NCBI GenBank assembly: GCA_043803685.1
Contig: JAZDJU010000103.1
Coordinates: 1-64,000, forward strand
Direction of reading: 5' to 3'
From: Candidatus Omnitrophota bacterium
Lineage (GTDB): Bacteria > Omnitrophota > Omnitrophia > Omnitrophales > Aquincolibacteriaceae
DNA length: 64,000 nt
Of the stretch, positions 34,612 to 55,598 are shown in pieces. Numbering within the stretch: the first letter of the stretch is position 1; every line of letters starts with the position of its first letter. A program made the translations under genes and the position numbers. A model generated the notes under the pieces. That model searched no databases, had not been told where the DNA came from, and worked only from the letters and a program-made list of their open reading frames with translations.

Positions 34612-34802
34612 CAGTTGCTCCTCTAGTACTGTTCCCACTGAATAACGGCATTTCCCCACGAATTATAATCCACGAGCGAGTGAGAAACTCGTTTTTTCTC
34701 TGGGAAAAATGCCGCGACCGGGATATCCCGGCGAAATGGGGTTGGGAGTTAAAAGAGGCCGTTTTCGGCCGATAATCCTACAGAGTTTTAACCCGGAGGG
34801 GT

Positions 34803-36374
34803 TTGATGGAAAAGCATGATGGCATTTATACCGTAAGCGCGAGCCGTGTATTGCCCGCCAAGCGATGGCAGGTCCTGCGCCTCCTCACGCGCGTTCAGGA
34901 ATTCCCGAAGTTCATGCCCAATGTCAAAGAGTGCCATGTCCTCAGCCACACCCGCGTCAAGGTCGTGACGGCGTGGAAGGTGGAGATGGGTCACATTCCG
35001 ATCTCCTGGAAGGAAGAAGAGATCTTCGATTTTCACCATTTCATCATCCATTTCAAAGCAGTGGAAGGGGATCTTGAGGTCTTCGAAGGGGAATGGCATC
35101 TCACGGAGCATCCGAGCGGCGGGACCGAGGTCCGGATCGATGCGCGGGTGTGTCTCGGGATCCCGCTCCTTGAAACGATCATCGGCGGGGTCCTGGCGGA
35201 CCGCGTGAAAAAGAATTTTGAAGCCATGCTCCTGGCCTTTGACGGCCTCTTGACCGAACGCCGTTATCAAAAGATCGGCGACCGGCGCGTGAGTGACGTC
35301 CGCGGCTTTGGGGTGATCGGCCATCCCTACAACATGAACCATCTGATCAAATATTTCCAGTCGTTCAAACCCGACATGAAAGTCCCGTCCGAGGAGTTCC
35401 TGGCGAAGGTGTTCGACCTCGTGCCCTCCTACGTTTCCTACGATGTGAAGGAATTTCGCGGCTCAAGCGGCAAAACGACCCGCGGCGCGTTCATCGCCTG
35501 CAACATTATTCCCGACCTTCTCGCCAAAGATATGCAGAAGGGCGTGATGAAGGTTGTGGAATCCTGTAAAGTGGCGGAGAAGCTTGGCCTCGGCATCGTG
35601 GCACTCGGAGGTTTCACTTCGATCGCCGGCGAAACATACGGGGAGGAGTTCAGGAAATTGATCCACGTTCCGGTCACGACGGGAAATACCCTGACCGCGG
35701 CACTAGCCATCGAAGGTGTTCTGAAAGCCGCGCGTCTCCGGGAGTTGGATCTTTCGAGGTCCAAGGTCACAGTGATCGGCGGGGCGGGGGATATCGGCAG
35801 CGCTTGTGCTCGGGCTTTGGTAGACAAGGTGAGCGACATCGTCATCACAAGCCGGAGCGTTGAGAACCTGGAGCATATGCGGAAATCGCTCGCGATGTTC
35901 GGAAAGGCGAAGTTCCACGGCATTCATGACAATAACGAAGCTGTCCGTGACGCGGATATCGTGATCGCGGCGGCGAGCGTCTCCCGTTCGATCCTCGATA
36001 TCGCGAGTTTCAAACCCGGTGCCATTATTTGCGACATTGGATACCCCAAGAACATCTCTTACCGGGAATGCGACCGCCAGGACATCCTGATCTTTTCGGG
36101 AGGGATCTGTTCTCTGCCGCAGGAATTCAACGCGGGATTCGATATCGGTCTGCCGTCCTCGAAAGTTCTCTACGGCTGCTTTTCGGAGGCGATCGTCCTG
36201 GCGCTCGAGGAACGGTACGTGAACTATTCGTGGGGGAAGGGGAACATCACCCAGGAGAAAATGGCGGAGATCCTCGACCTTGCCCGGAAAAACGGATTTG
36301 AGCTCGCTCCCTTTTTCTGGGGCCGCCGCCTCGTGACCGACGAAGAAGTGAAGGCGATCAAAATCAAGACATGA
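34803..36374 (+). CDS. SRPBCC/START domain fused to long-chain acyl-ACP reductase (AAR)-like domain
   Basis: N-terminal ~150 aa cyclase-like (FPKFMPNVKEC, GDLEVFEGEW). C-terminal motifs match cyanobacterial AAR: FGVIGH, ALGGFTSI, TTGNT, GGAGDIGSA, DIGYPKN, GCFSEA, NYSWGKGNIT.EKM. Confidence 0.8.
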   Translation: MMEKHDGIYTVSASRVLPAKRWQVLRLLTRVQEFPKFMPNVKECHVLSHTRVKVVTAWKVEMGHIPISWKEEEIFDFHHFIIHFKAVEGDLEVFEGEWHLTEHPSGGTEVRIDARVCLGIPLLETIIGGVLADRVKKNFEAMLLAFDGLLTERRYQKIGDRRVSDVRGFGVIGHPYNMNHLIKYFQSFKPDMKVPSEEFLAKVFDLVPSYVSYDVKEFRGSSGKTTRGAFIACNIIPDLLAKDMQKGVMKVVESCKVAEKLGLGIVALGGFTSIAGETYGEEFRKLIHVPVTTGNTLTAALAIEGVLKAARLRELDLSRSKVTVIGGAGDIGSACARALVDKVSDIVITSRSVENLEHMRKSLAMFGKAKFHGIHDNNEAVRDADIVIAAASVSRSILDIASFKPGAIICDIGYPKNISYRECDRQDILIFSGGICSLPQEFNAGFDIGLPSSKVLYGCFSEAIVLALEERYVNYSWGKGNITQEKMAEILDLARKNGFELAPFFWGRRLVTDEEVKAIKIKT

Positions 36375-36668: not shown

Positions 36669-36678
36669 ACGGGGTTTT

Positions 36679-38904
36679 ATGCCTCAATTAACCCGTGCGT
36701 TTCAATTCAACTGGTATGCCGTACCTGTCTTCGCTGTCGGGATCCTGATGTTCCTGATCGCGCTCTTTATTTTTCTTCAGAACAGGCGCTCCCGCGTCAA
36801 TTTCTCGTTCTTCCTGATCGGGATCTGCGGCCTTTTCTGGTTCCTGGGCGTTGCCGGAACTTATGCCGCGAGCACTCCGGCGTTCGCGCTGGCCTTCTAC
36901 CGGACTGTGACGTTCCTCGGGGTCGCCTTGATCGCGCCCTGCACCCATTATTTTTCCGCGACGTGGCTTGGGCTTTTTGACAAACAAAAAGTCGCGATCC
37001 GGACCGGTTTTTTCTTCGGTGCGGCCTTTTACATCGTGGGCCTTTTTTCTCCGCTCAGTTTTCCGGGCGTCTATCATTACTTCTGGGGTTTTTATCCCAT
37101 CTACGGGCCCCTGAATTACTATTTCTTCGGATTCTTCTTTCTCGTGCTCTTTTGCGCCTTCTATAACTTCTTCAGCGCGCTTTTCAGAGAGCCGAAGGGC
37201 GTGCGCCATACCCAGATCGGGCTGATCACCCTCGGCTTCCTGGTTTCCTTCATGGGCTCGTTCGATTATGTGCCCAAGCTCCTTTACTATTCCGTCTATC
37301 CGATGGGGTTCCTCTGTGTGTTCTTCTGGATCCTGGTCGTGGCGTACGCGATCATCCGCTACAAGGCGATGGATATCGAGACCGTGATCCATAAGACACT
37401 GATGTGGCTGGCTACGATGGTTGCGGCGGTCATTCCTTTCGGAATTCTGGTGTACTGGGCCCAGCACTTTCGGGGGCCGTCGTCCCCTTGGGGTTGCACG
37501 CTCGATAGCGTTATGGTGGCCATTACCTTTTATTTTTATTTCCGGTCCCTGAAGCCCCGGCTCGATCATTTATTCCAGCGTCAGCGGAAGAACCTGCTCG
37601 CGATCATGACGCAGTTCTCGCGGGAGCTTGTGCTCCTGAAGAACCTCCGCGATCTTTTGCAGAGTTTTGCCCGCATGTGTCGCCGCCAGCTCTATGTGCG
37701 CCGCCTCTCGGTCTTCCTGCTGGATGACAAGAACGATGAATACGTTCCGGCCATCGCGAAGGGGCTGCGGAACCTTAAACCCATTCGCAAAGACCATCCG
37801 TTCCTTGTCTGGCTTGAGAAAGAGGACGCGGTCGTGATGGGGAACCTTGTCAGCACCCACCCGGAGGTCGAAGCGTTCAAGGGCGAGGTTGAGGAATTCT
37901 TCCGTGCGACGCAGGGAATGGTCGCGGTGCCGCTGGTGCTGGGAGGGAAACTCATCGGAGTGGTGAGCCTCGGCCGGAAGGCGAACTTGAAGCCCTATCG
38001 TTCCGGGGAAGTCCAGTTCCTCACCGAGCTCAAGATCCCGGTGACGATCGCGTTCTCGAATTCCATGCAGTATGAAAATATCAGCGAGCTTTACACCCAG
38101 GTCCGGGGGATGAGCGAGGAACTCAAGCGCTGGAACGTGGAGCTGGAGAAGCGCGTGGAAGACCGGACGCGGGAACTTGTGAGGACGCAGGAGCAGTTGA
38201 TCCAGGCGGAAAAACTGGCGACTTTGGGAACGCTTGCCGGTGGCGTGGCGCACGAGATCAATAATCCGCTTACGGCGGTATTGACGAACGCGCAGATCCT
38301 CAAGATGACCGCCGACTCCGATACCAAAGAGTCGCTGGACCTGATCGAGGAAGGCGCGAAGCGCTGCCAGGGGATCGTGCAGAAGCTCATGAAATACGCC
38401 CGGAAGACCGCGGAAGAGGCGCCTCACAAGGACGTCGATCTTCGCGAGATCGTGAAGGGGACTTGCTCGCTTCTCGGGTTCCAGTTCCAGCAGGAGAGTA
38501 TTGAGGTCGAGATGAAGCTCGGGGCTGTTCCTCCCGTGAAAGGGATCGCGGGGGAGCTCGATCAAGTCCTCACGAACCTTCTCGTGAACGCCCGCGATGC
38601 CATATTAGCTACAAAAAAAGACGGTCCCTCCGGTCCCAAAGCGCCGAAGGGCAGGATCATCGTTGAGACGCGCGAAGTCTCCGGGGCTGTCGAGCTTGTG
38701 GTGACGGACAACGGCATCGGCATTCCCAAAGAGAACCAGAAAAAGATCTTCGATCCCTTCTTCACCACCAAGGACGTCGGCTCCGGCACCGGCCTTGGTC
38801 TCTCCATTACCTTCGGCATCCTCAAGCGCCACAGCGCCACCATCTCCGTCGCCTCCGAACCTGGGAAGGGAGCAACCTTCGTGGTTAACTTCCCCAAGAA
38901 GTAG
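36679..38904 (+). CDS. Sensor histidine kinase 1: HisKA_7TM-like N-terminus, GAF, HisKA, HATPase
   Basis: Many N-terminal TMs; VPLVLGGKLIGVVSLG (GAF), AHEINNPL, NLLVNA, DNGIG, FFTTK, GTGLGL. Confidence 0.9.
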   Translation: MPQLTRAFQFNWYAVPVFAVGILMFLIALFIFLQNRRSRVNFSFFLIGICGLFWFLGVAGTYAASTPAFALAFYRTVTFLGVALIAPCTHYFSATWLGLFDKQKVAIRTGFFFGAAFYIVGLFSPLSFPGVYHYFWGFYPIYGPLNYYFFGFFFLVLFCAFYNFFSALFREPKGVRHTQIGLITLGFLVSFMGSFDYVPKLLYYSVYPMGFLCVFFWILVVAYAIIRYKAMDIETVIHKTLMWLATMVAAVIPFGILVYWAQHFRGPSSPWGCTLDSVMVAITFYFYFRSLKPRLDHLFQRQRKNLLAIMTQFSRELVLLKNLRDLLQSFARMCRRQLYVRRLSVFLLDDKNDEYVPAIAKGLRNLKPIRKDHPFLVWLEKEDAVVMGNLVSTHPEVEAFKGEVEEFFRATQGMVAVPLVLGGKLIGVVSLGRKANLKPYRSGEVQFLTELKIPVTIAFSNSMQYENISELYTQVRGMSEELKRWNVELEKRVEDRTRELVRTQEQLIQAEKLATLGTLAGGVAHEINNPLTAVLTNAQILKMTADSDTKESLDLIEEGAKRCQGIVQKLMKYARKTAEEAPHKDVDLREIVKGTCSLLGFQFQQESIEVEMKLGAVPPVKGIAGELDQVLTNLLVNARDAILATKKDGPSGPKAPKGRIIVETREVSGAVELVVTDNGIGIPKENQKKIFDPFFTTKDVGSGTGLGLSITFGILKRHSATISVASEPGKGATFVVNFPKK

Positions 38905-39619: not shown

Positions 39620-40003
39620 TTGGCGTTTTCGGGGTATCAACAGGCGACGCAATACGGATGGAAGCGGGAGGGGGAAGCGATTCTCTTCGATCTTTATCCC
39701 GGCAAGCGCGTTTATACTACCAAACTTTTGTCGTCTCCGCTGGATCGCGGGAGATGCCGGAAATGGAACGAGTGGAAAAAGATCTTCGTGGGAATTTTGA
39801 ACCCGGAAGATCTTGTGACCTCCAAAATGTTCCGGGGCACAGAAACCGACATTCAGGATTGCCTGTTGCTTTTTGCGAAGGAAAAGATCGATCTGGAAAA
39901 GTTTAAAAAGCGTTACCGGGAAACAGCCCAATACGAGATTAGCGAGGCTAAGGTTTTGAAGAATCTCGAAATCTTGCTTAAGCGGCTTGGAGAGGAAAAA
40001 TAA
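39620..40003 (+). CDS. Probable 5'-truncated nucleotidyltransferase-like (DUF6036-like) protein
   Basis: LNPEDLVTSKMFRGTETDIQD resembles the C-terminal DL..SK..R...D..D motif of this group; N-terminal GG/DxD part not seen. Confidence 0.45.
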   Translation: MAFSGYQQATQYGWKREGEAILFDLYPGKRVYTTKLLSSPLDRGRCRKWNEWKKIFVGILNPEDLVTSKMFRGTETDIQDCLLLFAKEKIDLEKFKKRYRETAQYEISEAKVLKNLEILLKRLGEEK

Positions 40004-40698
40004 TGAAGAAAGCCAACAAAGGTGCATTGCTGGATCAGCTGACTCGCTACGGTTATGTCCTGTCGGCGCCGCAGGATTCTATGAATCCAGAAGAGGTCCT
40101 TAAGGCGCTTCTCGATCAGGAGGATATGAGATTACTCGAGGGATTTCCTGTGGTTCTTGCCCATGCGCTTTCGGGTCACGGAACTCTTCAGTGGGAGGAC
40201 AAAAAATGGTCTCCCGGGAAAGAACTTTTCTCTAAAGTCAAAGAGCGCTGGACTGTTTTAATGGGGTTGAGCCTTCTTTTGTTCCGTCTTTTCGGATTGC
40301 CCAAGCCACTTGAAGATCGCGCCTATCAACTTCTCAAGAAAAGTCCTGACGGAGAAAAAGTCCTCGGAGGTCTCGAAAAGGATTTTTCTGGCTCCGGTGA
40401 AGTCCTGGCTGCGGGGATGAGATTTTCGGCGGAACGACTCAAAAATAGTTTTCGGAATTATGTTTTATTGCAAGACCAGGAGGGGGGGCTGCAGGAACAG
40501 AAAGATTCTCTTGAATTCGAACTGCGCCTTTCCGAGCTCTTTACGCCCCGGCAGAAGGAGTTGCTCGCCAAGCGACTTGACCGGAAACCGTTCTCCAAAA
40601 CCGAACGGGAATATTATTACCGGGTGGTGAAAAAAAGGCTGAAAGCGCTTGCGGACGAGCGGGTCTACCAGATGGCCCGCAAGCTCGTTTTTTCATAG
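40003..40698 (+). CDS. Hypothetical protein with C-terminal HTH-like segment
   Basis: Coupled to the upstream ORF (TAATG); LFTPRQKELL...EYYYRVVKKRL. Confidence 0.55.
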   Translation: MKKANKGALLDQLTRYGYVLSAPQDSMNPEEVLKALLDQEDMRLLEGFPVVLAHALSGHGTLQWEDKKWSPGKELFSKVKERWTVLMGLSLLLFRLFGLPKPLEDRAYQLLKKSPDGEKVLGGLEKDFSGSGEVLAAGMRFSAERLKNSFRNYVLLQDQEGGLQEQKDSLEFELRLSELFTPRQKELLAKRLDRKPFSKTEREYYYRVVKKRLKALADERVYQMARKLVFS

Positions 40699-40778
40699 TT
40701 GCGGGTTTGGCGTAGGGTGGGGTATTGACGGGAAGCTAATGCTATGATAACCTTGGTTATGATAACGGAGGTTACTAT

Positions 40779-42104
40779 ATGAAATTTTATGACAGAGAAG
40801 AGGAGCTGGCGGAGCTGGAAAAGCTCCTGGGACAGACGGCAAAGAGCTCGCACATGGCGGTTTTGACCGGGAGGAGGCGGGTCGGCAAGACACTTCTTTC
40901 CCTGGAATTTGTCAAAAACAAAAAGTATCTGTATTTCTTCGTATCCAAGAAATCGGAGACACTCCTGTGCGAGGAATATGCAGGGGAGATCCGACGCCTC
41001 TTCCCGGATGCGGCTATTGCGGACGGGATACGTTCTTTCAAGGATCTTTTTCATCTACTGCTCGTGCTTGCCCGTGATGAATCCTTCACAGTGATCATCG
41101 ACGAATTCCAGGAGTTTACCCATATCAATCCTGCGGTTTATTCCGAGATCCAGAAACTATGGGATCTTAACAAGACCCAAAGCCGGTTGAATCTGATCTG
41201 CGTTGGCTCGGTCTATTCTCTCATGCACAAGATCTTTGAAGGCGCTAAGGAGCCGCTGTTCAACCGCGCGGACCGGATCTTGACGCTTAAGCCGTTCCCC
41301 CTCAAGGTTCTGGCTCAGGTCTTGTGTGATTACAAGGCCGAAAATACCCGGCTTCTTTTCGATTATTATCTTTTTACGGGAGGCAGTCCGAAGTACATCG
41401 ATCTTCTCGTCGAAAACAAAGCATTTTCCGTAAAAGAGATCCTGGATCTTATGATCGCCGCGGACTCGCCGTTCATCAACGAGGGAAAGAATCTCTTGAT
41501 CGAGGAATTCGGCAAGGAATATGGCACCTATTTCTCCATTCTCGAAATGATCGCTTCCGGAAAAACAGGCCGCTCCGAGATCGAATCGATCCTGGAAACG
41601 AATGTCGGCGGTTATCTGGACCGGCTGGAGAAGGATTATGCGGTCATCGAGAGGCGAAAACCCGTTAACGCGAAACAGAATTCGAAGACGCAAAAATATG
41701 TGATCACAGATAACTTCCTGAATTTCTGGTTCCGGTTCGTTTATCGCAACCGTTCCGCTATCGAAACCGGGAATTTCAAATACATCAAAGACGAGATCCT
41801 CTGGAATTATTCGACCTATTCGGGAAAGATCCTTGAACGATTCTACAGGGCTCTTTTTGCCGAAACAGGCCGTTACAATCGCATCGGTTCTTATTGGGAC
41901 AGGAGTCATCAGAATGAAGTCGACCTCGTGGCCATCAACGATATGAAAAAAGAAATGGTCGTGGCCGAGGTGAAGTTGAACCCCAAGAAGATTAATATCG
42001 AGGACTTGAAACGCAGGGCTTCGCGTCTTCTGCCGGACTTTGTGAAATATAAAGTGGAATGGCTTGCCCTCAGCCTCGAAAATATTGGGGATTTTCTCCG
42101 GTAG
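40779..42104 (+). CDS. Archaeal-type AAA ATPase with C-terminal DUF234 (PD-(D/E)XK-like) domain
   Basis: FYDREEEL, GRRRVGKT (Walker A), IIDEFQ (Walker B), DNFLNFWFRF, EVDLVA...EVK. Confidence 0.88.
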   Translation: MKFYDREEELAELEKLLGQTAKSSHMAVLTGRRRVGKTLLSLEFVKNKKYLYFFVSKKSETLLCEEYAGEIRRLFPDAAIADGIRSFKDLFHLLLVLARDESFTVIIDEFQEFTHINPAVYSEIQKLWDLNKTQSRLNLICVGSVYSLMHKIFEGAKEPLFNRADRILTLKPFPLKVLAQVLCDYKAENTRLLFDYYLFTGGSPKYIDLLVENKAFSVKEILDLMIAADSPFINEGKNLLIEEFGKEYGTYFSILEMIASGKTGRSEIESILETNVGGYLDRLEKDYAVIERRKPVNAKQNSKTQKYVITDNFLNFWFRFVYRNRSAIETGNFKYIKDEILWNYSTYSGKILERFYRALFAETGRYNRIGSYWDRSHQNEVDLVAINDMKKEMVVAEVKLNPKKINIEDLKRRASRLLPDFVKYKVEWLALSLENIGDFLR

Positions 42105-42322: not shown

Positions 42323-44002
42323 GTGAATCCTTATAACTTTTCTATCCTGTGTTTTGGGTTTTGTGCTGTTTTTCTGGGTTTATTAGTCTGGCTAAAGCGT
42401 CAAGATTTGTTGGGCCAAAAATATTTCGTTTTTTCTTTAACATGCGCTGCGTTTTCTTTGCCTTTCGCCAATAACTTCAATTTAAGTACCTCTCATGCTT
42501 CAGCTCTTCTGACAAGTCGCCTGGCGAATGGCTTCGCAATTTTTATTCCGGTGACATGGTATGATTTCGCGTTAGTTTTTATCGGCAAACAAAAAGAAAG
42601 AAAAACGCTCATCCGATTTTTGTATTTTTTTTCACTAGTTCTCTTTTGTTTTATCTTTTCAGAAAAATATGTGACCGATGTTAAGTGGATATCTGGCTTT
42701 TATTCCGCAGTTGCCGGTCCTCTGCATTATTTTTTCTCCTCTCTTTTCTTTACAGTCGTGCCCTTAAGTTTTTTCGAGCTTCTTCGCGGAATGAAAACAG
42801 CTCGTCATCAGGAACAGCAAAACATTAAATGGGTAGCGATTTTTGTTGGCTTGTCATTTTTAGGAGGTAGCTTCACCTTAGTGCCTGCCTATGGGATAGC
42901 CTTTCCCCAGTATGGATTATTTTTGATGCCCATTTACCCCTTTGCTTTGGCGTATTTTATGATCAAACAAAAACTCTTCGACGTAGAAGAGCTCGCGCAG
43001 GCGGCGCACAGGGACAAGCTGACGGCGATAGGGGTGCTGGCGGCGAGCATCAACCACGAGGTGAAGAACCCACTCTTTATCATCAAAGGTCTCGCGGAAA
43101 GTTGTCTCGATCGGCAGAAAGAGGGGATATTTCCGACGAAAGAAAAGGCGCTTGAGAGCGCTAATGACGCCATGAAGCGAAGCGTCGAGCAGGCGGACCG
43201 GGCGATGGATATCATCAAGCGGTTGTCGCTTTTCGCCAAAGCCGGGATCGACAGTGAGATCAAATTCGAGCCGGTGAATGTCGCGCAAGTGATCGAGGAT
43301 GTCCTGCCACTCGTTCGTTACGAGCTTGCCGCGCACGGCATTGCCCTCTCGCGTGATATTCCTCCCAATCTTCCCGATGTCTCCGCCGACCGCCGCTATC
43401 TGGAGGAGATCCTGTTTAATCTGATCGTGAATGCATGCCAGGCGATCAAGCCCAATTCTCCTTCAGATGATTCAAAGGTTAATTGGACTAGCCCTGGCAA
43501 CCTTCGATCAAAAGAAAATGGAGGCCAGGACAAGGAAGGCGGCTTGTCTGGGGAGATTGTAATAACAGCAACAACGGGAGCCACGAGCCACGGGACACGT
43601 GCCTCGTCTGTCATTGCGAAGGAGTCCGCCGAAGATTTTGGCGGACGACTGCGGCAATCTAAAAACGAGATTGCTTCGTCGTCTTCGCGACTCGCAATGA
43701 CGGATGCTAAGTTGGGCCAAGGGACAGGTAATGAGGCTTTTTTAAATTCACGTGGCACGAGGCTCGTGGAACGTGTCCCGGTTGTGATCACTATCCAGGA
43801 CACCGGCCCCGGGATTCCCGCCGACAAGCTGAAGGACGTCTTCCGTCCCTTTTATACGACCAAAGCCGAAGGTACGGGTCTCGGGCTTTATATCACCCAG
43901 CAACTCGTCGAAAAGATCCGTGGCCGGATCGACGTCCACTCCGAGATCGGTGTAGGGACAACCTTTACGGTTCTTTTACCAGTAGGGGGACAGTCCCTTT
44001 AA
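42323..44002 (+). CDS. Sensor histidine kinase 2: HisKA_7TM-like N-terminus; HATPase with in-frame repeat insertions
   Basis: About 7 TMs; NHEVKNPL, NLIVNA, DTGPG, FYTTK, GTGLGL; roughly 90 extra aa between the N and G1 boxes. Confidence 0.88.
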   Translation: MNPYNFSILCFGFCAVFLGLLVWLKRQDLLGQKYFVFSLTCAAFSLPFANNFNLSTSHASALLTSRLANGFAIFIPVTWYDFALVFIGKQKERKTLIRFLYFFSLVLFCFIFSEKYVTDVKWISGFYSAVAGPLHYFFSSLFFTVVPLSFFELLRGMKTARHQEQQNIKWVAIFVGLSFLGGSFTLVPAYGIAFPQYGLFLMPIYPFALAYFMIKQKLFDVEELAQAAHRDKLTAIGVLAASINHEVKNPLFIIKGLAESCLDRQKEGIFPTKEKALESANDAMKRSVEQADRAMDIIKRLSLFAKAGIDSEIKFEPVNVAQVIEDVLPLVRYELAAHGIALSRDIPPNLPDVSADRRYLEEILFNLIVNACQAIKPNSPSDDSKVNWTSPGNLRSKENGGQDKEGGLSGEIVITATTGATSHGTRASSVIAKESAEDFGGRLRQSKNEIASSSSRLAMTDAKLGQGTGNEAFLNSRGTRLVERVPVVITIQDTGPGIPADKLKDVFRPFYTTKAEGTGLGLYITQQLVEKIRGRIDVHSEIGVGTTFTVLLPVGGQSL

Positions 44003-44071: not shown

Positions 44072-45472
44072 ATGAACTATTACGGATTCAGTAGCTTGTT
44101 TAATGGAATCGTGGTTCTCACAGTAGGTTTTTATCTTTTATCCCGCCAAAGGCAAAACGGTCTTTACCAAAGTTTTGCGGTTTTTTCTGCCTGTGTAGGG
44201 CTGTGGTGTATTTTTTACTCGTTTTGGCAAGCTCAAACGAGCAAGGCTGAAGCTTTGATGTATATGCGGCTAGCCATGATTCCATGCTATCCCATCCCGT
44301 TTGCCTTCTTGTGGTTTGTGCTGACCTTGGTGGGTGTCAAAAAAAGGTGTTGGTGGTTGCCTGTGGTGATTGGGACGCCTCTTGTTTTCATGATATTTGG
44401 TTTTAGTCCATTTATGCTCGCAGACATGGTGCCCAAACTTAATTTTAAATTTTGGTCTGTTCCAGGCGCTTTAATGCATTTTTACGTTTTTTTGTTTTGC
44501 ATAGTTGTTTTATATAGTTATGGCGTTTTGATTCAAGGGTTTAAAAAAGCGAGTGGAATTCAAAAATGGCAGATTAAATGGGTGATGCTGTCTTTGCTGC
44601 CATCCTGGGTCGGAGGAGCAACGAATTGGTTTTTGTGGTACGACATCCCTATTCCACCGGTTGCTCATTTTTTTATCGGTGTTGGGTTTTTAATATTGGC
44701 ATATGCAATAGTAAGAAGCCGTCTTTTTGACGTTGATGCTTTGGCGGATTATGTCCAGGAAGCCAAGCTCTCGGCGCTGGGGATCATGGCAACCAGCATC
44801 AACCATGAGGTGCGGAATCCGCTCTTCGTGATCAGAGGGCTGGCAGAAACGTTGAGGGATCGACCGGACACGGCTCCCGAAAAGATCAAAGACATCGCTC
44901 AGCGGGCTATGGCGCAGGCAGACCGGGCGCTCGAGATCATCCGGAATTTTTCAGAATACGCCAAGCGGCAAAGTTCCAAGACCTTTGACAAGACGCCCCT
45001 CGATGTCCGTGAAATTCTCGATAGCATCGTACCTCTTGTAGCCAGCGAACTTGCTCTGGACCAGATCCGGTTGCAGGTGAATATCCCCGCGAAGACGATG
45101 GTTTGCGTCGACCGGCATTCTTTGGAGGAGATATTCATCAACCTTATTGTGAATGCTTGTCAGGCGATGCCTAACGGTGGAGAGATAGAAATAACAGCAG
45201 AAACGGGGGACAGGGGCCAGGGGACATGCGGACCTGTCGCACACCCGGGGTTGCGTGAAGTTCAACCCCGGGTGTTGATCAAGGTGATAGACACCGGCCC
45301 AGGCCTGGCCCAGGACCAATTGAGCAGGATCTTCGAACCTTTTTACACCACCAAAGCCTCCGGTACCGGTCTTGGTCTTTATGTGGTCAAGCAACTGGTG
45401 GGAAAGAATGGCGGCAAAATCAGCGTTGCATCCATTCCAGGTAAGGGCACGACGTTTACCATCACTTTATAA
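44072..45472 (+). CDS. Sensor histidine kinase 3: HisKA_7TM-like N-terminus, HisKA, HATPase
   Basis: About 7 TMs; NHEVRNPL, NLIVNA, DTGPG, GTGLGL; paralog of kinase 2. Confidence 0.88.
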   Translation: MNYYGFSSLFNGIVVLTVGFYLLSRQRQNGLYQSFAVFSACVGLWCIFYSFWQAQTSKAEALMYMRLAMIPCYPIPFAFLWFVLTLVGVKKRCWWLPVVIGTPLVFMIFGFSPFMLADMVPKLNFKFWSVPGALMHFYVFLFCIVVLYSYGVLIQGFKKASGIQKWQIKWVMLSLLPSWVGGATNWFLWYDIPIPPVAHFFIGVGFLILAYAIVRSRLFDVDALADYVQEAKLSALGIMATSINHEVRNPLFVIRGLAETLRDRPDTAPEKIKDIAQRAMAQADRALEIIRNFSEYAKRQSSKTFDKTPLDVREILDSIVPLVASELALDQIRLQVNIPAKTMVCVDRHSLEEIFINLIVNACQAMPNGGEIEITAETGDRGQGTCGPVAHPGLREVQPRVLIKVIDTGPGLAQDQLSRIFEPFYTTKASGTGLGLYVVKQLVGKNGGKISVASIPGKGTTFTITL

Positions 45473-45529: not shown

Positions 45530-46594
45530 ATGAGGAGGAGCATGAAATCATTCTCCGTTACGACCTATGCAGCGCTTCGCAGAAAAGTCGAAGAGACGCT
45601 GCTTCGCGGCCAGAGAAAGATCGAAGAAGCAAAAGTCCTTACTTATTGGCAAACCGGACGCTACATCAATCAGCACGTCAAGGTTAACGGAGGAAGGGCG
45701 GAATACGGCGAACAAGTCATCCTGAGACTTTCCGAAGATCTCAAAGTCGGGGATGACCTGCTTTATCGTTGTTCGCGATTTGCCGCGCTTTTGCCGATTT
45801 CCGCCAGCTGGCGGAAATTAACCTGGTCACATTTGCGCGCTTTATGCCGTGTGTCTGATGACCGGAAGCGTCTGGAATTACTGGAACAAGCCGTGCGGAA
45901 CGAATGGCCTTCGGCCGTGCTTGAAACGAAGATCCGCAATCTGAATTGGGAGGTTCGCGCGGCAGCCCTGGAAGGCAAACCGCCGTCGCTTCCTCCCGTG
46001 CCCGCATTGGGCCCTTTTTACACCTACCAGGTGATCGCGCCCCAGACCGTGCATTCCTCCTCCAAACAGCTCCTTCTGGACCTTGGTTTTTCCTGCCGAC
46101 TTGAGATGGAAATTTTCCAGGGCACCCATTTCCCTGCGGGAACGATCCTAGAATCCAAAAGGCGTGACGAAGGGGAGAAGAGTGCTCCCAAGCACGCGCC
46201 GATCGTCCGGGGAAATTCTATTTTTAAACTTGTCAGATCGGGAGGAGGCAACGAAGCGCTCTACACGTACAAGGCTTTTGTGCAAAAGTTCATCGACGCA
46301 GACACCTTCCACGTGGAGTTCAGGTTGGGGTTCGGGCAGCTCCGCGAAGAAACCATCCGTTTAAAAGGAGTCGACTGCCCGGAGATCAATACGCCGGAGG
46401 GCAAGGCCGCCAAGCGTTTTGTCGAGCGCGAACTGGGGGGTTGTGAATTCATTACCGTCAAATCCACCCAGACCCGCAAAGAAAAATGGGGTCGTTACCT
46501 GGCCGACCTTTTTTACCAGGATAAAAGCGGAAAACTGATCTATTTGAATAATCTGCTACTCGAAAAAGGACACGCCGTTCGTGTCCGGGGCTAG
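45530..46594 (+). CDS. DUF1016 N-terminal-like domain fused to thermonuclease (SNase)-like domain
   Basis: YWQTGRYI, YGEQVI..LSEDL, LTWSHLRAL, EQA..NEW; C-terminal IDADT, IRLKGVDCPE, KWGRYLA, LN..LL..G.A. Confidence 0.75.
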   Translation: MRRSMKSFSVTTYAALRRKVEETLLRGQRKIEEAKVLTYWQTGRYINQHVKVNGGRAEYGEQVILRLSEDLKVGDDLLYRCSRFAALLPISASWRKLTWSHLRALCRVSDDRKRLELLEQAVRNEWPSAVLETKIRNLNWEVRAAALEGKPPSLPPVPALGPFYTYQVIAPQTVHSSSKQLLLDLGFSCRLEMEIFQGTHFPAGTILESKRRDEGEKSAPKHAPIVRGNSIFKLVRSGGGNEALYTYKAFVQKFIDADTFHVEFRLGFGQLREETIRLKGVDCPEINTPEGKAAKRFVERELGGCEFITVKSTQTRKEKWGRYLADLFYQDKSGKLIYLNNLLLEKGHAVRVRG

Positions 46595-46786: not shown

Positions 46787-48379
46787 ATGGCAAAAAAAAT
46801 TCTCATAATTGATGATGATCTTTTGATTTTAAAGAGTCTCACTAGTGTTTTTATTCGAGATGGATGGGATGTTGAGACCTGCCAAGATGGGGATGCTGCT
46901 TTAGGGAGAATCGCGAAAGAAATTTATCAGTGTGTTTTGCTTGATATCCGCATGCCAGGGCTTGATGGCACTCAGATAATGTCTAGCATGAGGGCGGCTG
47001 AGGCTAAACAGCCGGGGCGCAGGCAGCATGTTGTTGTAATGACAGGTTATGCGGATGAGAATGCGATTGTGCGCATTTTCGGATTAGGTGCAAGCGACTA
47101 TATCCAAAAACCATTTGATGTCCAGGAGTTGTTAAAAAAAGCTAACGCATGCCTCAATGCGGAAGAATTTATTAGTGGTTATGGTCGCGTTGAACAGGAG
47201 GGCGAAGCTGATGGAAAAACATTTAAAAAAATTCGTAAAAATTATGATTTTGCTAGTATTTTAAAAAAAGCAGAACTTCTAGAGAAAGAAATTAATGTTC
47301 GCCTTACTCATATCAGAGGTTGTACCTACAACACGGAATTTTGGAAGGGTAACATTGAGAACCCAATAGGGATTGCTCAGATTCCGCTGGGTTTGGTGGG
47401 GCCAATTGCGGTAAAGGGGAAACACGCGCAAGGTGAATTTTGGGTCCCTATGGCCACTACTGAAGGCGCTTTGACATTGACCTATGACTTAGGTTCACGA
47501 TTATTATCTATGGCTGGTCCAGTCGAGGCGGAGGTCATTTCGAAGGTGGTGCATATTTCACCAATGTTTCCCATTATTAGCGATGAAGACAAACGCGTGG
47601 CAGAGTTTATTGATAACCACTATGAGGAAATAAAAAAAGTAGCGGAAGCTGACAGCCATCATACAAAACTGCTCGGCATTGAAAGGCATCATATAAAAAA
47701 TCAATTTGTTTTAAAATTTAAATATGATACTGGAGATGCTCACGGCCTTAATATGATTAACCATGCGACTTTTTATGCTTGTAAATATATTCAGGCGAAA
47801 ACAGGAGCCGACTTTTATCATAGATCCCACTACAGCGGCGTCAAACATCATTCTTGGGTTAATGAAAATGAAGGGTATGGCCGAGTCGTGAAGGCTCGTG
47901 GCATTGTTTGCCAAAAGGCACTTGGCATGCTTGGGGTGAGCGCAAAAAAAATGAAGGACTTTTTTGACCGTTGCGTTCAATGCGGCACTGCCGCTGAAAT
48001 TAAATCGGTCAATGTCCATGCAGCCAATGGGTTGGCCGCAATTTTCATTGCTTGCGGTCAGGATGTGGCGGATTTAAGCAGCGCTCATACATGTGCAACT
48101 ACGGTTGAGATCGCCGGTGAAGGAAAGGATTTGCTTATCCAAGTCGAGCTGAAAAATTTGCTGATAGCGACCGTCGGTGGCGGCACCGGCCTCGGTACTC
48201 AGAGTGAATGCCTGAATATTATGGATTGTTTGGGTTCGGGTAAATCTGATAAGTTTGCAGAGATTATAGCGGCCATTGTTCTGGCGGGTGAATTTCCAAC
48301 TGCGGCCGCAGTGATTAATGAAACTTACGTCGACATTCATGATAAGTATGGTCGCAACAAATCTAAGATAGTAAAGTGA
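46787..48379 (+). CDS. Receiver domain fused to class I HMG-CoA reductase-like domain
   Basis: ILIIDDD, LLDIRMP, MTG and QKPF receiver motifs; IENPIG, PMATTEG, GDAHGLN, HAAN, ACGQD, TVGGGT and LAGE reductase motifs. Confidence 0.88.
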   Translation: MAKKILIIDDDLLILKSLTSVFIRDGWDVETCQDGDAALGRIAKEIYQCVLLDIRMPGLDGTQIMSSMRAAEAKQPGRRQHVVVMTGYADENAIVRIFGLGASDYIQKPFDVQELLKKANACLNAEEFISGYGRVEQEGEADGKTFKKIRKNYDFASILKKAELLEKEINVRLTHIRGCTYNTEFWKGNIENPIGIAQIPLGLVGPIAVKGKHAQGEFWVPMATTEGALTLTYDLGSRLLSMAGPVEAEVISKVVHISPMFPIISDEDKRVAEFIDNHYEEIKKVAEADSHHTKLLGIERHHIKNQFVLKFKYDTGDAHGLNMINHATFYACKYIQAKTGADFYHRSHYSGVKHHSWVNENEGYGRVVKARGIVCQKALGMLGVSAKKMKDFFDRCVQCGTAAEIKSVNVHAANGLAAIFIACGQDVADLSSAHTCATTVEIAGEGKDLLIQVELKNLLIATVGGGTGLGTQSECLNIMDCLGSGKSDKFAEIIAAIVLAGEFPTAAAVINETYVDIHDKYGRNKSKIVK

Positions 48380-50670
48380 ATCTCCTCTCCTTTTTCTTTC
48401 TACTGTCTTCTCTTGTTACATTCACATTGGGCATCTGGGTCGTCAGCGCAAATCCCAAGAATAGAATTTATCTTTCTTGGTTTCTTTTTTGTTCTAGTGT
48501 TGCTGTGTGGAGTTTTGGATTGGGCGTTCTTACGATAGCTCCGAATTTGGGCGTAGCGAGCTTTTTTTACTTCGTTCATTATTTTGGTGCAATCAATATC
48601 CCGGTTATGTTTTTGTGTTTCATACGTGTTTATTTTTTGCATGATGCTAAGCCTCAGAAATCACCAGATTTGATCATTGGCTGCATTTTAGCCGCTTTCC
48701 AAATAGCCGCGTTTTTTACTGGTCATCTCGTTGGCCCGCTGATGCCAAAGTGGCAGTTTAGGTACTATACAACGCCGAGTGTTTTGTATCCATTTTTCAT
48801 GGTGTATTTCTTTTTTTATGTGAATTATTGTTTTTTTCTGATGATTAGAGCCTTTCGACGAGATAAAGCTTTAAGGGAGAAACGGAATGTTTTCATTATT
48901 GTGGCAACAGCATGTGGATTCACTGGTGGCAGCACTGCTTTCTTTCTAGTTTACAACATTGATTTGCCGCCCTATGGAATTTATTGTTTTTTGCTTTTCC
49001 CCATCATTACTTCATACGCCATTATCAAACATGGTTTAATGGAAATCGAAGTAATTATCCGCAAGACAATTGTCTTCGCGGGGCTTTTTGGGGTGCTTAT
49101 GGCGGTTGTTGGTGGTGTTACAGCGCTAGCGCAGAGTTATGTTGGACAACTGGTCGGGATGGGGACAACAGCGCGACAGCTTCTTAGTATTCTTGTGGCG
49201 ATAGCCCTGTTTGACCCAACCCGCAAATTGCTAGTCAATCTCACGGACAAATTCCTCTTCCAGAAAAAATATGATTATCACAAGTTGCTGAAGGATGCGT
49301 CGCGGGGGATGTCGAATATCGAGAGCCTGGAGCATCTTCTGGGGCTGGTGGTGCACTTCATTACGATGAAGATGCGCGTGAAGAACGCGGCGGTGCTGAT
49401 GCGGGAGGGGGCAAGCGACCAGTACAAGCTCGTGTATCAGCGCGGGTTCGACAAGAAGTTCCTGACCATGACCCTCTATGAGAACGATCCTCTGATCCAT
49501 TATCTCGAGAGCCACAAAGAAGCGGTGGATATCGAGCGCATCAAGGAGCAGGTCGAGGCGGCGTCCTATCAGCGGGACAAAAGCGAGAAGGCTTACGATT
49601 ACGAAGCGATCCGGGAGCGGATGACTCAATTGCAGGCCAGCTGCTGCGTGCCGAGCTTTCTGGGGCGCGAGCTCCGGAACATCCTGATGCTGGGGGAAAA
49701 GAAATCCGGCGAGTATTATTCGAACGAGGACCTGAACCTGCTTTACACGCTGGCGCAGGAATCTTCCATCGCGATCGAGAACGCGCGGCTTTATGACGAG
49801 GCCCTTCGGAAGACCGACGAGCTGGAACATATCAACGATCAGCTCGAGCATTCCAAAGGGCTTCTGATGAAAGCCCTGCAGGAGGCCGAGGGCGCGAATA
49901 AGCAATTGCAGGACACCCAGGCCCAGCTCATTCACGAGCAGAAGATGGCGACCCTGGGACGGCTGGCGGCGTCGGTGGGGCATGAGGTGAATAACCCGCT
50001 TACGATCCTTTCCATGAACGTGTCGCGCGTGATCCTGAAACACCGGAAGAACCAGGACATGAAAGTGACGGAGATCCTGGACGTCTTCGACAAAATGGAA
50101 AAGAACATCGAGCGCATCAAGGCGGTGGTGAATACGCTGACCGGGCTTCTCAAGAAATCAGAGAAAGGGAAGTTCGAGCCCTTGTCGCTCAAGTTGATCC
50201 TGGAGGAGACCCTGCCGCTCGTGCAGTTCCAGACCTATCTCGACAATCTCTCCGGCACCGAGGTCGATTTTAATGTGCCCGGCAACGTGCCGCTCATTCG
50301 CGGCGACCTCGAGCGTCTGCAGGAAGTGTTTCTGAATCTCTTCATCAACGCTTACCATGCCATGGCCAGCAAGCGGCACCGCAAGATCGGGGTCCATGCC
50401 GAGATCGACCCGAGAGACCCGACCATGGTCGCGATCCATTTCAGGGACAACGGTTCGGGCATGAACGAAGAGACCGCGAAGAAGATCTTCAATTACGGGT
50501 TCACGACCAAGCCCCCCGGTAAAGGGTCCGGGCTCGGTCTTTACATGTGCAAGTACATCATCGAGCTGCACGGCGGAACGATCACCGTCGACAGTAAGCT
50601 CGGCGAGGGCACCACGTTCACTCTGACCCTCCCCGCGTATTCGGAGAAGATGGCGCTGAAAGCGCCGTGA
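48376..50670 (+). CDS. Sensor histidine kinase 4: HisKA_7TM-like N-terminus, GAF, HisKA, HATPase
   Basis: GTG start overlaps the upstream stop; LGEKKSGEYY..ED..L (GAF), GHEVNNPL, DNGSG, GSGLGL. Confidence 0.9.
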   Translation: MNLLSFFFLLSSLVTFTLGIWVVSANPKNRIYLSWFLFCSSVAVWSFGLGVLTIAPNLGVASFFYFVHYFGAINIPVMFLCFIRVYFLHDAKPQKSPDLIIGCILAAFQIAAFFTGHLVGPLMPKWQFRYYTTPSVLYPFFMVYFFFYVNYCFFLMIRAFRRDKALREKRNVFIIVATACGFTGGSTAFFLVYNIDLPPYGIYCFLLFPIITSYAIIKHGLMEIEVIIRKTIVFAGLFGVLMAVVGGVTALAQSYVGQLVGMGTTARQLLSILVAIALFDPTRKLLVNLTDKFLFQKKYDYHKLLKDASRGMSNIESLEHLLGLVVHFITMKMRVKNAAVLMREGASDQYKLVYQRGFDKKFLTMTLYENDPLIHYLESHKEAVDIERIKEQVEAASYQRDKSEKAYDYEAIRERMTQLQASCCVPSFLGRELRNILMLGEKKSGEYYSNEDLNLLYTLAQESSIAIENARLYDEALRKTDELEHINDQLEHSKGLLMKALQEAEGANKQLQDTQAQLIHEQKMATLGRLAASVGHEVNNPLTILSMNVSRVILKHRKNQDMKVTEILDVFDKMEKNIERIKAVVNTLTGLLKKSEKGKFEPLSLKLILEETLPLVQFQTYLDNLSGTEVDFNVPGNVPLIRGDLERLQEVFLNLFINAYHAMASKRHRKIGVHAEIDPRDPTMVAIHFRDNGSGMNEETAKKIFNYGFTTKPPGKGSGLGLYMCKYIIELHGGTITVDSKLGEGTTFTLTLPAYSEKMALKAP

Positions 50671-50809
50671 GACGGGAAGCAAGAGGCAGGAGGCAAGAGA
50701 CAAGAGACAACAGACTGCCACCAAACCTCAATGGTTTGGTGCGACTTCGGCATGGACTGTACATTCCTGTCCGAGTCGAGACGGCAGACCACAGACCGGA
50801 GACAACAGA

Positions 50810-51210: not shown

Positions 51211-51570
51211 ATGAAAAAGAAGATTCTCATTGTGGATGACGAGGCGGGGATCGTTCAGGAGATCAAGGAATTCCTGGAGGAGGAGGGCTATGAGGTCCAT
51301 ATGGCGGACTCGGCCAAGGCGGGGATCTTGCTCGTCGAGGAGATCCATCCGGACGTGATCCTGATCGACGTGAAACTGCCGGATGCTTCCGGGACCGAGG
51401 TGCTTCGCTTCTGCAAGGAAAAGTCTCCCAAGACCAAGACCATCATGGTGACGGGGTACGTGGACCAGCACTTGATCGACGAGGCGGAATCGATCGGCCG
51501 GGATTCCTTTCTCCAGAAACCTTTTAATCTTGAAGAGATATTGAAGGAAATCGAACGCCTGACGGCCTAA
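51211..51570 (+). CDS. Single-domain response regulator
   Basis: ILIVDDE, LIDVKLP, VTG, QKPF. Confidence 0.9.
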   Translation: MKKKILIVDDEAGIVQEIKEFLEEEGYEVHMADSAKAGILLVEEIHPDVILIDVKLPDASGTEVLRFCKEKSPKTKTIMVTGYVDQHLIDEAESIGRDSFLQKPFNLEEILKEIERLTA

Positions 51571-53246: not shown

Positions 53247-55598
53247 ATGTTCCGTCAATTCGCAGAGTTCATCCATCATTTCCGGTGGCCGGTCCTGCTG
53301 GCCATGTTGATCAGTGTCTTCTTCTTCGGGATCGCGGTCTCGAAGCTCTCCGTCGATCCCTCCATGGAAACGCTCTTCATCAAGAAATCCCCCGAATACC
53401 AGTATTATCAACAGTACCGTATCAAATACGGCAGTGACCAGATGATCGCTGTCGCGATGTCGACCGAGAACCTTTTCACCCTCCCCAATCTCAAGACCCT
53501 GAAGAGCCTCACCGACGGCATTGCCAGTTATCCGCAGGTGGAGCGCGTGATCAGTCTCGCTAACGCGATGGACATCAAGCATAAGTTGCTCGGTGTGAAG
53601 ACGGTGCCGGCGCTCGAGGGGGTGTTCGAGGGCGAGCGGTCGATCGAGGACGCCAAAAAGGAAGTGCTCCGGAACGAACTTTACGTCAGCAATATCGTTT
53701 CGAAGGACGGGAAGATCGCCAACATCTTGGTCTATCTCAAGCCTGCCGAGAAGAACAGCGCCGCGGCCAATGGGGCGTTCATCAGCGCGCTCAAAGATTA
53801 TTTGAATGACTTTGAAAAGCCGGGCGTGAAATTTTACATGGCGGGCGCGCCCGTCGAGCAGTATGAGTTCATCGATCTGATCCACCGCGACCAGATGATC
53901 TTTGTCCCGGTGATCACCATCATTCTGATCCTGATGACGTGGCTGATCTACCGCAGTTTTGTCTGCATGGTCCTTTCCATGTCGATCGTCTTTACGACGC
54001 TTGTCTGGACGCTCGGGACGATCTCGCTTCTGGGCCAGGAGCTGAACCTGATGACGTCGCTTCTCGCGCCGGTGATCATGATCGTTTCGGTGATCAACTC
54101 CACTTACCTGATCAATCTGTTCTTTGAGGTCCGGCCACACCACAAGAGCTTGAAAGAGGCCGTGAGCGTGACACTCCAGCAGCTCGGGATGCCGTGCTTT
54201 CTGACGCATTTTACGGCAGTCCTGGGTTTTGGCTCCCTCGCACTTAGTCCAATTCCGGCCATTCAAAGTTTTGGGATCTACGCGGCGCTCGGGACTTTTT
54301 ATTCTTACATTGTCGAGCTCGTGATGACGGCGGTGCTTCTGCCGATCCTGCCGTATCGAGCGGTGGATCCGAACGCCACGAATGAATCGCACTTTTTTAA
54401 CCGGGTTCTGCTGGGGTTCCTCGAAAAACTGGAGTTCCGCTGGAAGTGGTGGATCCTGATCGTGACGGGGCTCGTGATGGTGCTTTCGTTCCAGGGCGCC
54501 CAGAAGCTTGAGGTCGATACGAATATCGTGAAGCAGATGAAGCCGACCCTGCCGCTCGCGATCGCGACGAAATTCATCGACGAGCATTTGACCGGCGTTT
54601 ACTCGCTCGGGTTCGTGTTCCGCCGCAAGGACGGGGAGAGCCTTGTGGACGCGAAGACGCTGAATCTTCTGGACCAGTTCAAGACCTATCTGGAGACCGA
54701 GCCCGGGATCGCGAAGGTCAATAGCATCACGACGCTCATTAAAAAGATCAATGAGGCGCGGGAGGACGATCCCAACGCCTACCGGATCCCGAAGAGTCCC
54801 ACGATGCTCGGTCTCTATTTCAAGGGGTTGACCCAGTCTAAAGACCCGGAGCTTTGGAAACTGGTGTCGCATGATTTTAAAGAGGTGCGCATGGAGGCGC
54901 GCATGCGGGCGATCGGAACGACGCGTGGAGCGCTTTTGGAGGAACGGGTGCGGGAATATCTTCAGGATCACATGAGCGAATTTTTTGAATACAAACTGAC
55001 GGGGAATGTGGTGCTCTTGGGCAAGATCGCGAAGAGTCTTGTCGCGGAGCAGACCCAGAGTTTCGCCTTTGCTTTCATTTCGATTCTGATCGTGATCATC
55101 CTGATCTTCCGGTCGATCCCGCTTGGGCTTTTGGCCGCGATCCCGAATCTTATTCCGATCCTCGCGGTGTACGGGATCATGGGCTTCGCGGGGATCGAGC
55201 TTTCGACGGCGACGGCGATGATCGCGAGCATTGTGTTGGGGCTTGTGGTGGACGCTTCGATCCAGTTCCTTTACCGGTTCCGCAAGGAATTCCAGCACCG
55301 TTCTCATTACATCCAGTCCCTCCACCACACGTATCGTAATATGGGCCAGTCGATGGTCGTGTCGACCCTGATCCTTTGCATGGGGTTCGCCTCAAGTGTG
55401 TGCGCGAGCTTCCGGATCACCGTGCATTTCGGGGTGCTGACGAGTCTGACGATCTTTCTGGCGCTCATTTGCTCGCTTCTGGTCATGCCGGCGATCCTGA
55501 TCATGATGAAGCCGTTTGGTCCCCAGCGTCTTTTCAAACGCAAGGTCGCGGAGCACGATCCTTTGTACAAGTCGCAGGATTCCGGGAAGTCGGTTTGA
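53247..55598 (+). CDS. MMPL-family RND lipid transporter
   Basis: Two repeats of TM + soluble domain + 5 TMs; TAVLGFGSL, NLIPI, GLVVDASI, LCMGF. Confidence 0.85.
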   Translation: MFRQFAEFIHHFRWPVLLAMLISVFFFGIAVSKLSVDPSMETLFIKKSPEYQYYQQYRIKYGSDQMIAVAMSTENLFTLPNLKTLKSLTDGIASYPQVERVISLANAMDIKHKLLGVKTVPALEGVFEGERSIEDAKKEVLRNELYVSNIVSKDGKIANILVYLKPAEKNSAAANGAFISALKDYLNDFEKPGVKFYMAGAPVEQYEFIDLIHRDQMIFVPVITIILILMTWLIYRSFVCMVLSMSIVFTTLVWTLGTISLLGQELNLMTSLLAPVIMIVSVINSTYLINLFFEVRPHHKSLKEAVSVTLQQLGMPCFLTHFTAVLGFGSLALSPIPAIQSFGIYAALGTFYSYIVELVMTAVLLPILPYRAVDPNATNESHFFNRVLLGFLEKLEFRWKWWILIVTGLVMVLSFQGAQKLEVDTNIVKQMKPTLPLAIATKFIDEHLTGVYSLGFVFRRKDGESLVDAKTLNLLDQFKTYLETEPGIAKVNSITTLIKKINEAREDDPNAYRIPKSPTMLGLYFKGLTQSKDPELWKLVSHDFKEVRMEARMRAIGTTRGALLEERVREYLQDHMSEFFEYKLTGNVVLLGKIAKSLVAEQTQSFAFAFISILIVIILIFRSIPLGLLAAIPNLIPILAVYGIMGFAGIELSTATAMIASIVLGLVVDASIQFLYRFRKEFQHRSHYIQSLHHTYRNMGQSMVVSTLILCMGFASSVCASFRITVHFGVLTSLTIFLALICSLLVMPAILIMMKPFGPQRLFKRKVAEHDPLYKSQDSGKSV

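Follow-up and report, generated by a model that had tools for sequence, protein, structure and literature searches.

The locus described here raises the question of what a reductase of the HMG-CoA-reductase (HMGR) fold does when it is fused to a receiver domain and its gene runs directly into that of a kinase with a seven-helix (7TM) sensor. It lies in a window of 64,000 nucleotides (the whole stretch of DNA that was analysed) from a Candidatus Omnitrophota bacterium (assembly GCA_043803685.1, contig JAZDJU010000103.1). An earlier sequence-only reading had proposed a phosphorylation-controlled reductase for a thioester other than HMG-CoA, possibly in a feedback loop with the overlapping kinase. 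Here we analysed the pocket residues, the relatives, the gene neighbours and the codon composition of this enzyme, and we discuss which thioester it may reduce and which protein may sense the product. The features are collected in Table 1.

Table 1. Positions of the reductase cassette and of related features in the window
Feature	Position	Strand	Basis
Receiver fused to HMGR-fold reductase, 530 aa	46787..48379	+	ORF, Pfam, alignment, model
Receiver domain, aa 5-119 (D9-D11, D53, T86, K108)	46799..47143	+	Pfam, homolog alignment
Class I HMGR fold, aa 160-523	47264..48355	+	Pfam, alignment, profile alignment
HisKA_7TM-GAF-HisKA-HATPase kinase, 764 aa, start overlapping the reductase stop	48376..50670	+	ORF, Pfam
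Seven-helix sensor domain, predicted GPCR-like bundle	48397..49047	+	Pfam, sensor tree, model
Low-GC block: receiver, reductase and sensor (GC3 0.39-0.41)	46787..49250	no strand	codon composition
Stand-alone receiver, downstream; presumed second candidate target of the kinase	51211..51570	+	Pfam
Cyclase fused to acyl-ACP-reductase/PigE-like reductase, leading a parallel cassette	34803..36374	+	domain search
HisKA_7TM-GAF kinase of the parallel cassette	36679..38904	+	Pfam, sensor tree

Fold, pocket and receiver of the fused reductase

It was confirmed that the gene joins an intact receiver (Pfam Response_reg, E 6.5e-25) to a class I HMGR fold (Pfam HMG-CoA_red, E 8.5e-80), with a poorly conserved linker of some 20 residues after the receiver, and that its stop overlaps the GTG start of the kinase gene at 48376. 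A promoter and terminator scan stayed at chance level. By sequence alignment the best solved relatives of the reductase part are class I enzymes, and superposition of the predicted model of residues 140-530 (pLDDT 91.9) gave a TM of 0.88 both to 6HR7 and to 1DQA. The protein shares with these two structures 26-32% identity, the catalytic residues and the C-terminal helix, in which the equivalents of H866 and R871 are found. It differs from class I HMGR in that the HMG contacts are replaced, the TIGR00533 score (214 bits) is below the cut-off of 441.8 and there are no partner pathway genes.

Residue mapping was done by pairwise alignments to 1DQ8 and 6HR7 together with a profile alignment. The human numbers R590, D690, K692, K735, N567 and R568 are our own assignments, in part counted from positions in PMC11948995. 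The numbers E559, S684, K691, D767, L862 and H866 were taken as they are printed in the parts of PMC11948995 used here. The catalytic E559, K691, D767 and H866 correspond to E226, K353, D426 and H518 of the fusion, in agreement with the sequence-only reading, and all four are present in 72-73 of 73 close relatives. A full alignment might have found the HMG-binding residues conserved; instead both alignment types place I257, R346, V352 and H354 at R590, S684, D690 and K692, as had been claimed, and the CoA-contact segment ASTNRG is likewise replaced by LTYDLG, with D at N567 and L at R568. Arg at the S684 position occurs in 73/73 close relatives. One change absent from the earlier list is Y514 at the L862 position (Tyr in 71/73). 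The earlier claim for the K735 region holds as regards replacement, but its exact register is ambiguous, because the pairwise alignment to the human enzyme gives D394 and the profile alignment C396, the earlier mapping having implied R395. The C396 column is Cys in 71/73 close relatives and A, S or G in FcrA-type proteins (described below). The R627 position is H291 and variable among relatives, and R871 is kept.

Decay of a pseudogene was considered and ruled out as the cause of the pocket changes, because the altered motifs recur in the best 120 of 2432 scored homologs (40-100% identity; 40-88% for the others) and because silent changes predominate, 173 of 390 codons being silently different from the closest relative and 52 residue-changing.

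The receiver motifs were described earlier as intact, and this is upheld by the homologs: D53 and K108 are kept in 32/32 fused homologs, and the acidic pocket and Thr/Ser set in 31-32 of 32. The fused receiver therefore looks phosphorylatable and under constraint, judging from these alignments. Its identity between homologs is mostly 33-51% against 60-71% for the enzyme, which means that the receiver diverges faster. Outside the family, the receiver is most closely related to receivers that lead other enzyme-7TM cassettes, in which fusions to ketosynthase, aldehyde dehydrogenase, acyltransferase or thioesterase domains also occur. At three loci (L103, L105 and L106) the reductase is unfused and a receiver gene of its own stands before it; the fusion thus argues for a functional link, but it may be positional. 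Putative tuning of the fused enzyme by phosphorylation of D53 is given a little less than an even chance.

Kinship to FcrA and the probable substrate

An HMGR fold with a remodelled, non-HMG pocket is already known from FcrA (Grossi et al. 2025; PMC11948995), which is described, in the parts of that paper used here, as a fatty acyl-CoA reductase that does not reduce HMG-CoA and that acts on fatty acyl-CoA of at least 14 carbons with NADPH as donor. The FcrA pocket, elongated so that chains of C14 or longer fit, is marked by bulk at L862, by a small side chain at K735 (the position is printed as Lys795 and is taken here as K735) and by a changed S684, which is Glu in N. pharaonis. The present protein resembles FcrA, as it is described in those parts, in the fold, the four catalytic residues, the bulky residue at L862 and the small residue at K735 (with the uncertain register), as well as in hosts without a mevalonate pathway and in its side of the tree. 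It differs in that S684 is Arg and not Glu, the third hallmark being absent, and in that FcrA has alkyl-carrier, ACP or ligase domains where this branch has a receiver or PilZ; no wax synthase was found with this branch, and its partner is a 7TM kinase. R590, D690, K692 and R568 are lost in this protein whereas FcrA-type proteins keep them (R568 in 96/98), and 15/98 of the FcrA-type proteins have no acid at the S684 position (Ser).

After 85% dereplication, 268 domains were sorted into 13 canonical, 98 FcrA-type, 10 other and three nested groups. All three nested groups are without R590 and mostly have Arg at the S684 position; D/E690 and K692 are kept in the group of 25, D690 is lost in the group of 49, and in the group of 73, which includes this protein, D690 is lost and His stands at K692, these residue counts being descriptive only because the groups were defined by the same positions. 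In a 65-row maximum-likelihood tree without class II outgroup, a split with SH-aLRT of 100 separates this branch and FcrA-like proteins from 10 canonical archaeal-type enzymes, and nested and sister positions to FcrA are not separated; the FcrA label itself is an assignment by PF25653 domain, motifs and wax-synthase neighbours, the experimentally tested FcrA sequences not being among the rows. The enzyme thus appears as a sensor-paired branch of class I HMGR proteins on the side of FcrA, undescribed in the literature searched, and the tree and models of the FcrA study (PMC11948995) may hold members of it.

The homolog hosts named include Omnitrophota, Elusimicrobia, Planctomycetes, Lentisphaeraceae and Ca. 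Thiosymbion. The N-termini across the family comprise none, a receiver, one or two PilZ domains, or receiver plus PilZ, with hotdog domains in deeper relatives. Relatives from soil Acidobacteria and Alphaproteobacteria were considered as members of the same system and rejected; they are treated as FcrA-type because R590 and the DKK motif are kept, wax synthase is nearby and a 7TM partner is absent. Other HMGR-fold fusions were also seen (P0133, P0134, P0140, P0160, P0167, P0170 and P0258), the fused partners being AfsA-type hotdog, thioesterase, ligase plus ACP, APH-type kinase, DUF3419, acyl-CoA-binding and pantoate-ligase domains.

The genome was searched for isoprenoid genes of both routes. 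DXR and IspG of the MEP pathway are present, and HMG-CoA synthase and mevalonate kinase were not found in the whole genome (91% complete), which extends the earlier statement that neither is in the window. Among 18 other carriers of the phylum (3 of them FcrA-type), IspG is present in 16 and mevalonate kinase is over the cut-off in one, G023; the search for HMG-CoA synthase covered the present genome only. In G023 a TAG stop interrupts the reductase (L069, G023:C28:6431-7599), and ketosynthase, ACP and acyl-ACP-reductase-like genes lie downstream of it. Two roles were rejected. A mevalonate pathway using the thiolase at 33334-34659 is set aside by the opposite strand, the distance of 12 kb and the failure to find synthase or kinase. 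A wax-ester role is set aside since wax synthase (WS/DGAT) was not found in this genome (91% complete), in the 18 other phylum carriers or in 3 carriers from other phyla; the same model matches in 2 FcrA-type genomes.

The pocket residues, the kinship to FcrA and a MEP genome in which mevalonate genes were not found argue for the earlier proposal of a non-HMG thioester, and we consider a substrate other than HMG-CoA very probable. HMG-CoA or a short dicarboxylic acyl-CoA would still be the substrate, giving a mevalonate-like acid or lactone, if R346 and H354, perhaps with R395, formed a relocated carboxylate site. Such a site would fit the invariance of R346, the basal members that keep D690 and K692, and the short pockets in 12/59 modelled FcrA-like enzymes (PMC11948995, parts used here). 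It is hard to reconcile with the loss of R590, D690 and K735, the bulky residue at L862, the lack of any HMG-CoA synthase found in the genome, and the rejection of HMG-CoA by FcrA, as reported in the same parts, though FcrA-type proteins keep R590, D690 and K692; we regard it as improbable.

Reduction of acyl-ACP or acyl-CoA by four electrons, through the HMGR/FcrA mechanism, is the probable chemistry. Within three genes of the reductase, an ACP or ketosynthase gene was seen in at least 9/52 loci among the neighbours scanned (L016, L024, L061, L070, L081, L099, L101, L102 and L108), and these neighbours, together with the loss of the N567 and R568 CoA contacts, would favour acyl-ACP. The conserved polar residues H256, R346, H348 and H354 suggest that the acyl chain may bear an oxygen function and be no plain alkyl chain. 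Several observations count against this reading: Arg at S684, of opposite charge to the Glu of FcrA, could bind a carboxylate, the register at K735 is ambiguous, neither ACP nor ketosynthase adjoins the window locus, and the carrier G023 has a mevalonate kinase over the cut-off.

Pairing with the seven-helix sensor

The loss of the HMG-holding residues and the probable co-transfer with the sensor together point to a fatty-acyl thioester that is likely reduced to a small lipid, the predicted cue of the kinase. The reading that we put at slightly better than even is an acyl-ACP/CoA reductase making a lipid signal for the paired sensor kinase. The HMGR-fold enzyme would reduce an acyl thioester (likely acyl-ACP) to a lipid alcohol, which the seven-helix domain of the next-door kinase would bind as a signal. 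Enzyme and sensor would be transferred jointly to a kinase core already in place, so that lineages would come to have signal dialects of their own.

The pairing was examined at 150 loci, of which 95% dereplication left 52 of this branch, 49 FcrA-type and 5 unclassified; 3 and 6 loci of the first two sets were too short to judge, giving denominators of 49 and 43. The 7TM profile was built from the kinases that these loci and the window encode, and Pfam HisKA_7TM confirms it in the named-genome set. A 7TM kinase gene lies at most 450 bp downstream in 43/49 judged loci of this branch (one assigned by hand for its overlapping start; in two an ACP gene intervenes), and in 2/49 ketosynthase and ACP genes come first and the kinase gene follows within 5 kb. 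FcrA-type loci have a 7TM partner in 0/43. The link of the reductase to its overlapping kinase, which the sequence-only reading had drawn from one locus, is therefore real, and the 7TM kinase partner is the feature that sets this branch apart from FcrA-type proteins. The remaining loci count against the signal-synthase reading: two (L010 and L012) have no 7TM partner and two have the enzyme beside a broken sensor, of which only 36-45 aa are left. The latter remnants (L005:11160-11336 and L052:580-735) follow the reductase and represent receptor loss with the enzyme kept; L052 is beside a transposase.

The codon composition divides the kinase in two. GC3 in the window is 0.41 for the receiver, 0.39 for the reductase and 0.40 for the 7TM domain, against 0.71 and 0.83 for the rest of the same kinase, and it climbs to 0.7-0.9 near codon 270-300 of kinase 48376. 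This is not a membrane-protein effect, because the 7TM domain of kinase 36679 has a GC3 of 0.73. At 22 loci with full kinases the mean GC of four-fold sites is 0.42 for the enzyme, 0.41 for the sensor and 0.58 for the core; in 18/22 the sensor value is nearer to that of the enzyme than to that of the core in the same kinase, and the core lies more than 0.1 above the enzyme in 13/22 and that far below it in none. The best 38 BLAST rows of the sensor are all reductase-linked, with identity up to 84%, against 22-30% to five paralogs in its own genome. The best matches of the kinase core reach 33-39% and are mixed with unlinked kinases, the contig of the closest relative ending before the core. 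In a tree of 145 sensors, a single group of 45 holds 41/43 reductase-linked sensors, and 42/43 have another reductase-linked sensor as nearest neighbour. The reductase label is explained by 3 changes on this tree, whereas shuffled labels take 29.3, a test that shows clustering and not co-evolution because kin share labels.

The sensor domain thus follows the enzyme both phylogenetically and in codon composition, and the kinase core does not; enzyme and sensor domain are adjacent and vary together, as in a synthase-receptor pair. Transfer between bacteria has likely carried the reductase along with the sensor portion of the adjacent kinase, although shared GC and trees mean co-transfer, which any operon can give. 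Since the travelling part is the sensor and not the phosphotransfer core, the supported link is from enzyme chemistry to sensor, and a dedicated loop with kinase 48376 is uncertain; signalling from this kinase to the fused receiver is plausible.

Closest to the earlier proposal is an output enzyme: the kinase would sense another cue, for example membrane state, and the receiver would switch on a supply of fatty alcohol for ether or envelope lipids. The receiver intact in 32/32 fusions and the PilZ fusions, which point to regulated activity, agree with such a role, as do the ether-lipid roles that the FcrA authors propose (PMC11948995, parts used here). The reductase nevertheless travels with the sensor and not with the core that sets phosphotransfer specificity, unrelated enzymes occupy the same slot (see below), and the gene is patchy, matches being found in 19/401 phylum genomes (3 FcrA-type, leaving 16 with this branch) and this branch in 2/19 other genomes of the genus; the output enzyme is therefore judged unlikely.

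Two further kinases of the window, 42323-44002 and 44072-45472, have HisKA_7TM sensors with no enzyme gene upstream. Their sensors have GC3 of 0.39 and 0.43 on cores of 0.62 and 0.63, and they are possibly listen-only receptors.

The sensor model (pLDDT 93.9) aligns to GPCR-type seven-helix bundles with a best Z of 16.4 over 215 residues and rmsd 5.4. As helical bundles reach a Z of about 14 by arrangement alone, and Foldseek gave no match below E 0.001 for this model, the alignment only says that a small ligand could fit. The HisKA_7TM profile matched no solved structure by sequence; among 107 sensors LuxN had no match and PrsK one weak match. No ligand for HisKA_7TM is described in the literature searched. 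With somewhat more confidence than for the signal-synthase reading as a whole, we predict that the product of the enzyme is the ligand of the seven-helix sensor.

A weak lead comes from residue 393 of the predicted pocket, which splits with the receptor subtype. All 11 enzymes paired with receptor subtype 1 have F there and all 9 paired with subtype 2 have T, C or N, and this is the sole column of 390 without overlap between the subtypes (closest group, post hoc). Three changes of subtype are placed on the enzyme tree, which leaves 2-3 independent pairs and p 0.5. Being three positions before K735, the residue is probably on the K735 helix face. Later cases agree (L092, G with subtype 2; L005, F with a remnant closest to subtype 1; L079, F, a close kin of a training row), and enlarging the comparison found no new independent locus.

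The co-inheritance and the residue-393 pattern would be explained equally well if the sensor read an external acyl compound, for example from a host or neighbour, and the enzyme reduced its activated form, sensor and enzyme then sharing specificity for the substrate and not the product. A FadL-type uptake gene stands beside 4 loci among the neighbours scanned (L010, L015, L018 and L062), as removal or conversion of such a signal would suggest. Against this, dedicated ACP and ketosynthase genes at several loci point to synthesis from scratch and no acyl-CoA ligase was seen among the scanned neighbours; we find signal removal more doubtful than the output enzyme and hardly above the relocated carboxylate site.

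Other cassettes, known parallels and significance

HisKA_7TM gave 519 matches, in 188/251 Omnitrophota genomes searched. The gene directly upstream was surveyed for 80 of the best 94 listed matches (4 were already counted as reductase-linked and 10 were mostly contig ends or tandem), with labels made by hand from Pfam and no background control. In 52/80 it is a small-molecule enzyme: 12 methyltransferases, 10 acyl-ACP-reductase-like, 5 flavin oxidoreductases, 4 ICMT-like, 3 aldehyde dehydrogenase-like, 3 radical SAM and others. The remaining 28 comprise 2 ambiguous enzymes, 9 kinases, 4 receivers, 3 other genes and 10 unknown or absent. Sensors group by enzyme in the sensor tree for several classes, the sensor of kinase 36679-38904 falling with other cyclase-reductase-linked sensors, and no grouping is seen for flavin oxidoreductases (0/5) or oxoamine synthases (0/2). 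Three more enzyme-7TM cassettes are present in this genome, with a cyclase-reductase (window 34803-38904), a ketosynthase and reductase (C98:88199-95348) and a methyltransferase (C63:3920-9389). The C98 and C63 cassettes share their flanks, with a receiver ahead and, from the kinase on, receiver, double receiver and an opposite-strand HTH-like gene.

This variety also bears on a non-catalytic role, in which the protein would bind a ligand and regulate the kinase by contact. The tight gene coupling and the signalling fusions could be read in that way. The four catalytic residues are however kept in nearly every close relative and many unrelated folds occupy the same slot, which makes contact regulation very improbable.

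The surrounding window has several other features. A repeat of about 100-300 bases (VIAKESAE...GGRLRQS in translation) is found between genes at 36371-36690 and at 38934-39251 and inside kinase 42323 (about 43450-43750), where it lies in frame within the ATPase domain, and a related short repeat is at 50698-50790. An MMPL/RND transporter with a sterol-sensing-like domain and host-like GC (53247-55598) lies 3 kb downstream of the cassette and was not seen as a conserved neighbour. A phage-type integrase and a replication-protein-O-like gene open a low-GC (0.36-0.42) region at 58019-64000, likely an integrated element. Between the kinase cassettes, 45530-46594 and 39620-42104 hold a DUF1016-nuclease gene, a nucleotidyltransferase pair and an archaeal-type ATPase, which are absent from the matching stretch of relative L002.

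In the lipid-derived quorum pairs CqsA/CqsS, PhcB/PhcS and RpfF/RpfC an acyl-thioester-using synthase is next to a membrane kinase. Similar enzyme classes fill the slot before other 7TM kinases, the difference being that the signal here is a presumed one. We know of no HMGR-fold synthase or HisKA_7TM receptor among such pairs, and no description of the sensor-paired system was met in the literature searched, which covered few subscription papers. In the Bacillus ComQXP pherotype locus (PMC4008528, parts used here), the cytoplasmic part of the kinase is conserved, while its N-terminal sensor varies along with the signal genes. The likeness is that signal-making genes and kinase sensor vary together; ComQXP however uses a peptide signal and unrelated proteins, and in the present case the signal is postulated and the cores are not conserved between genomes.

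A wider proposal would make this an undescribed cell-to-cell system of Omnitrophota and neighbouring uncultured phyla, in which an HMGR-fold synthase would make a lipid-alcohol signal, a GPCR-shaped HisKA_7TM would read it, enzyme and sensor would be swapped as a block onto kinase cores with residue 393 setting the dialect, and phosphorylation or c-di-GMP would gate the signal output at the enzyme itself. These parts taken jointly we hold to be rather unlikely.

Even if the signal idea fails, such proteins carry the annotation of HMG-CoA reductase and would give a false hint of a mevalonate pathway. If the idea is true, the enzyme would offer a first candidate for the ligand chemistry of HisKA_7TM sensors, would show the HMG-CoA-reductase fold in a third role besides mevalonate and wax alcohols, and would open a bench route into the signalling of an uncultured phylum.
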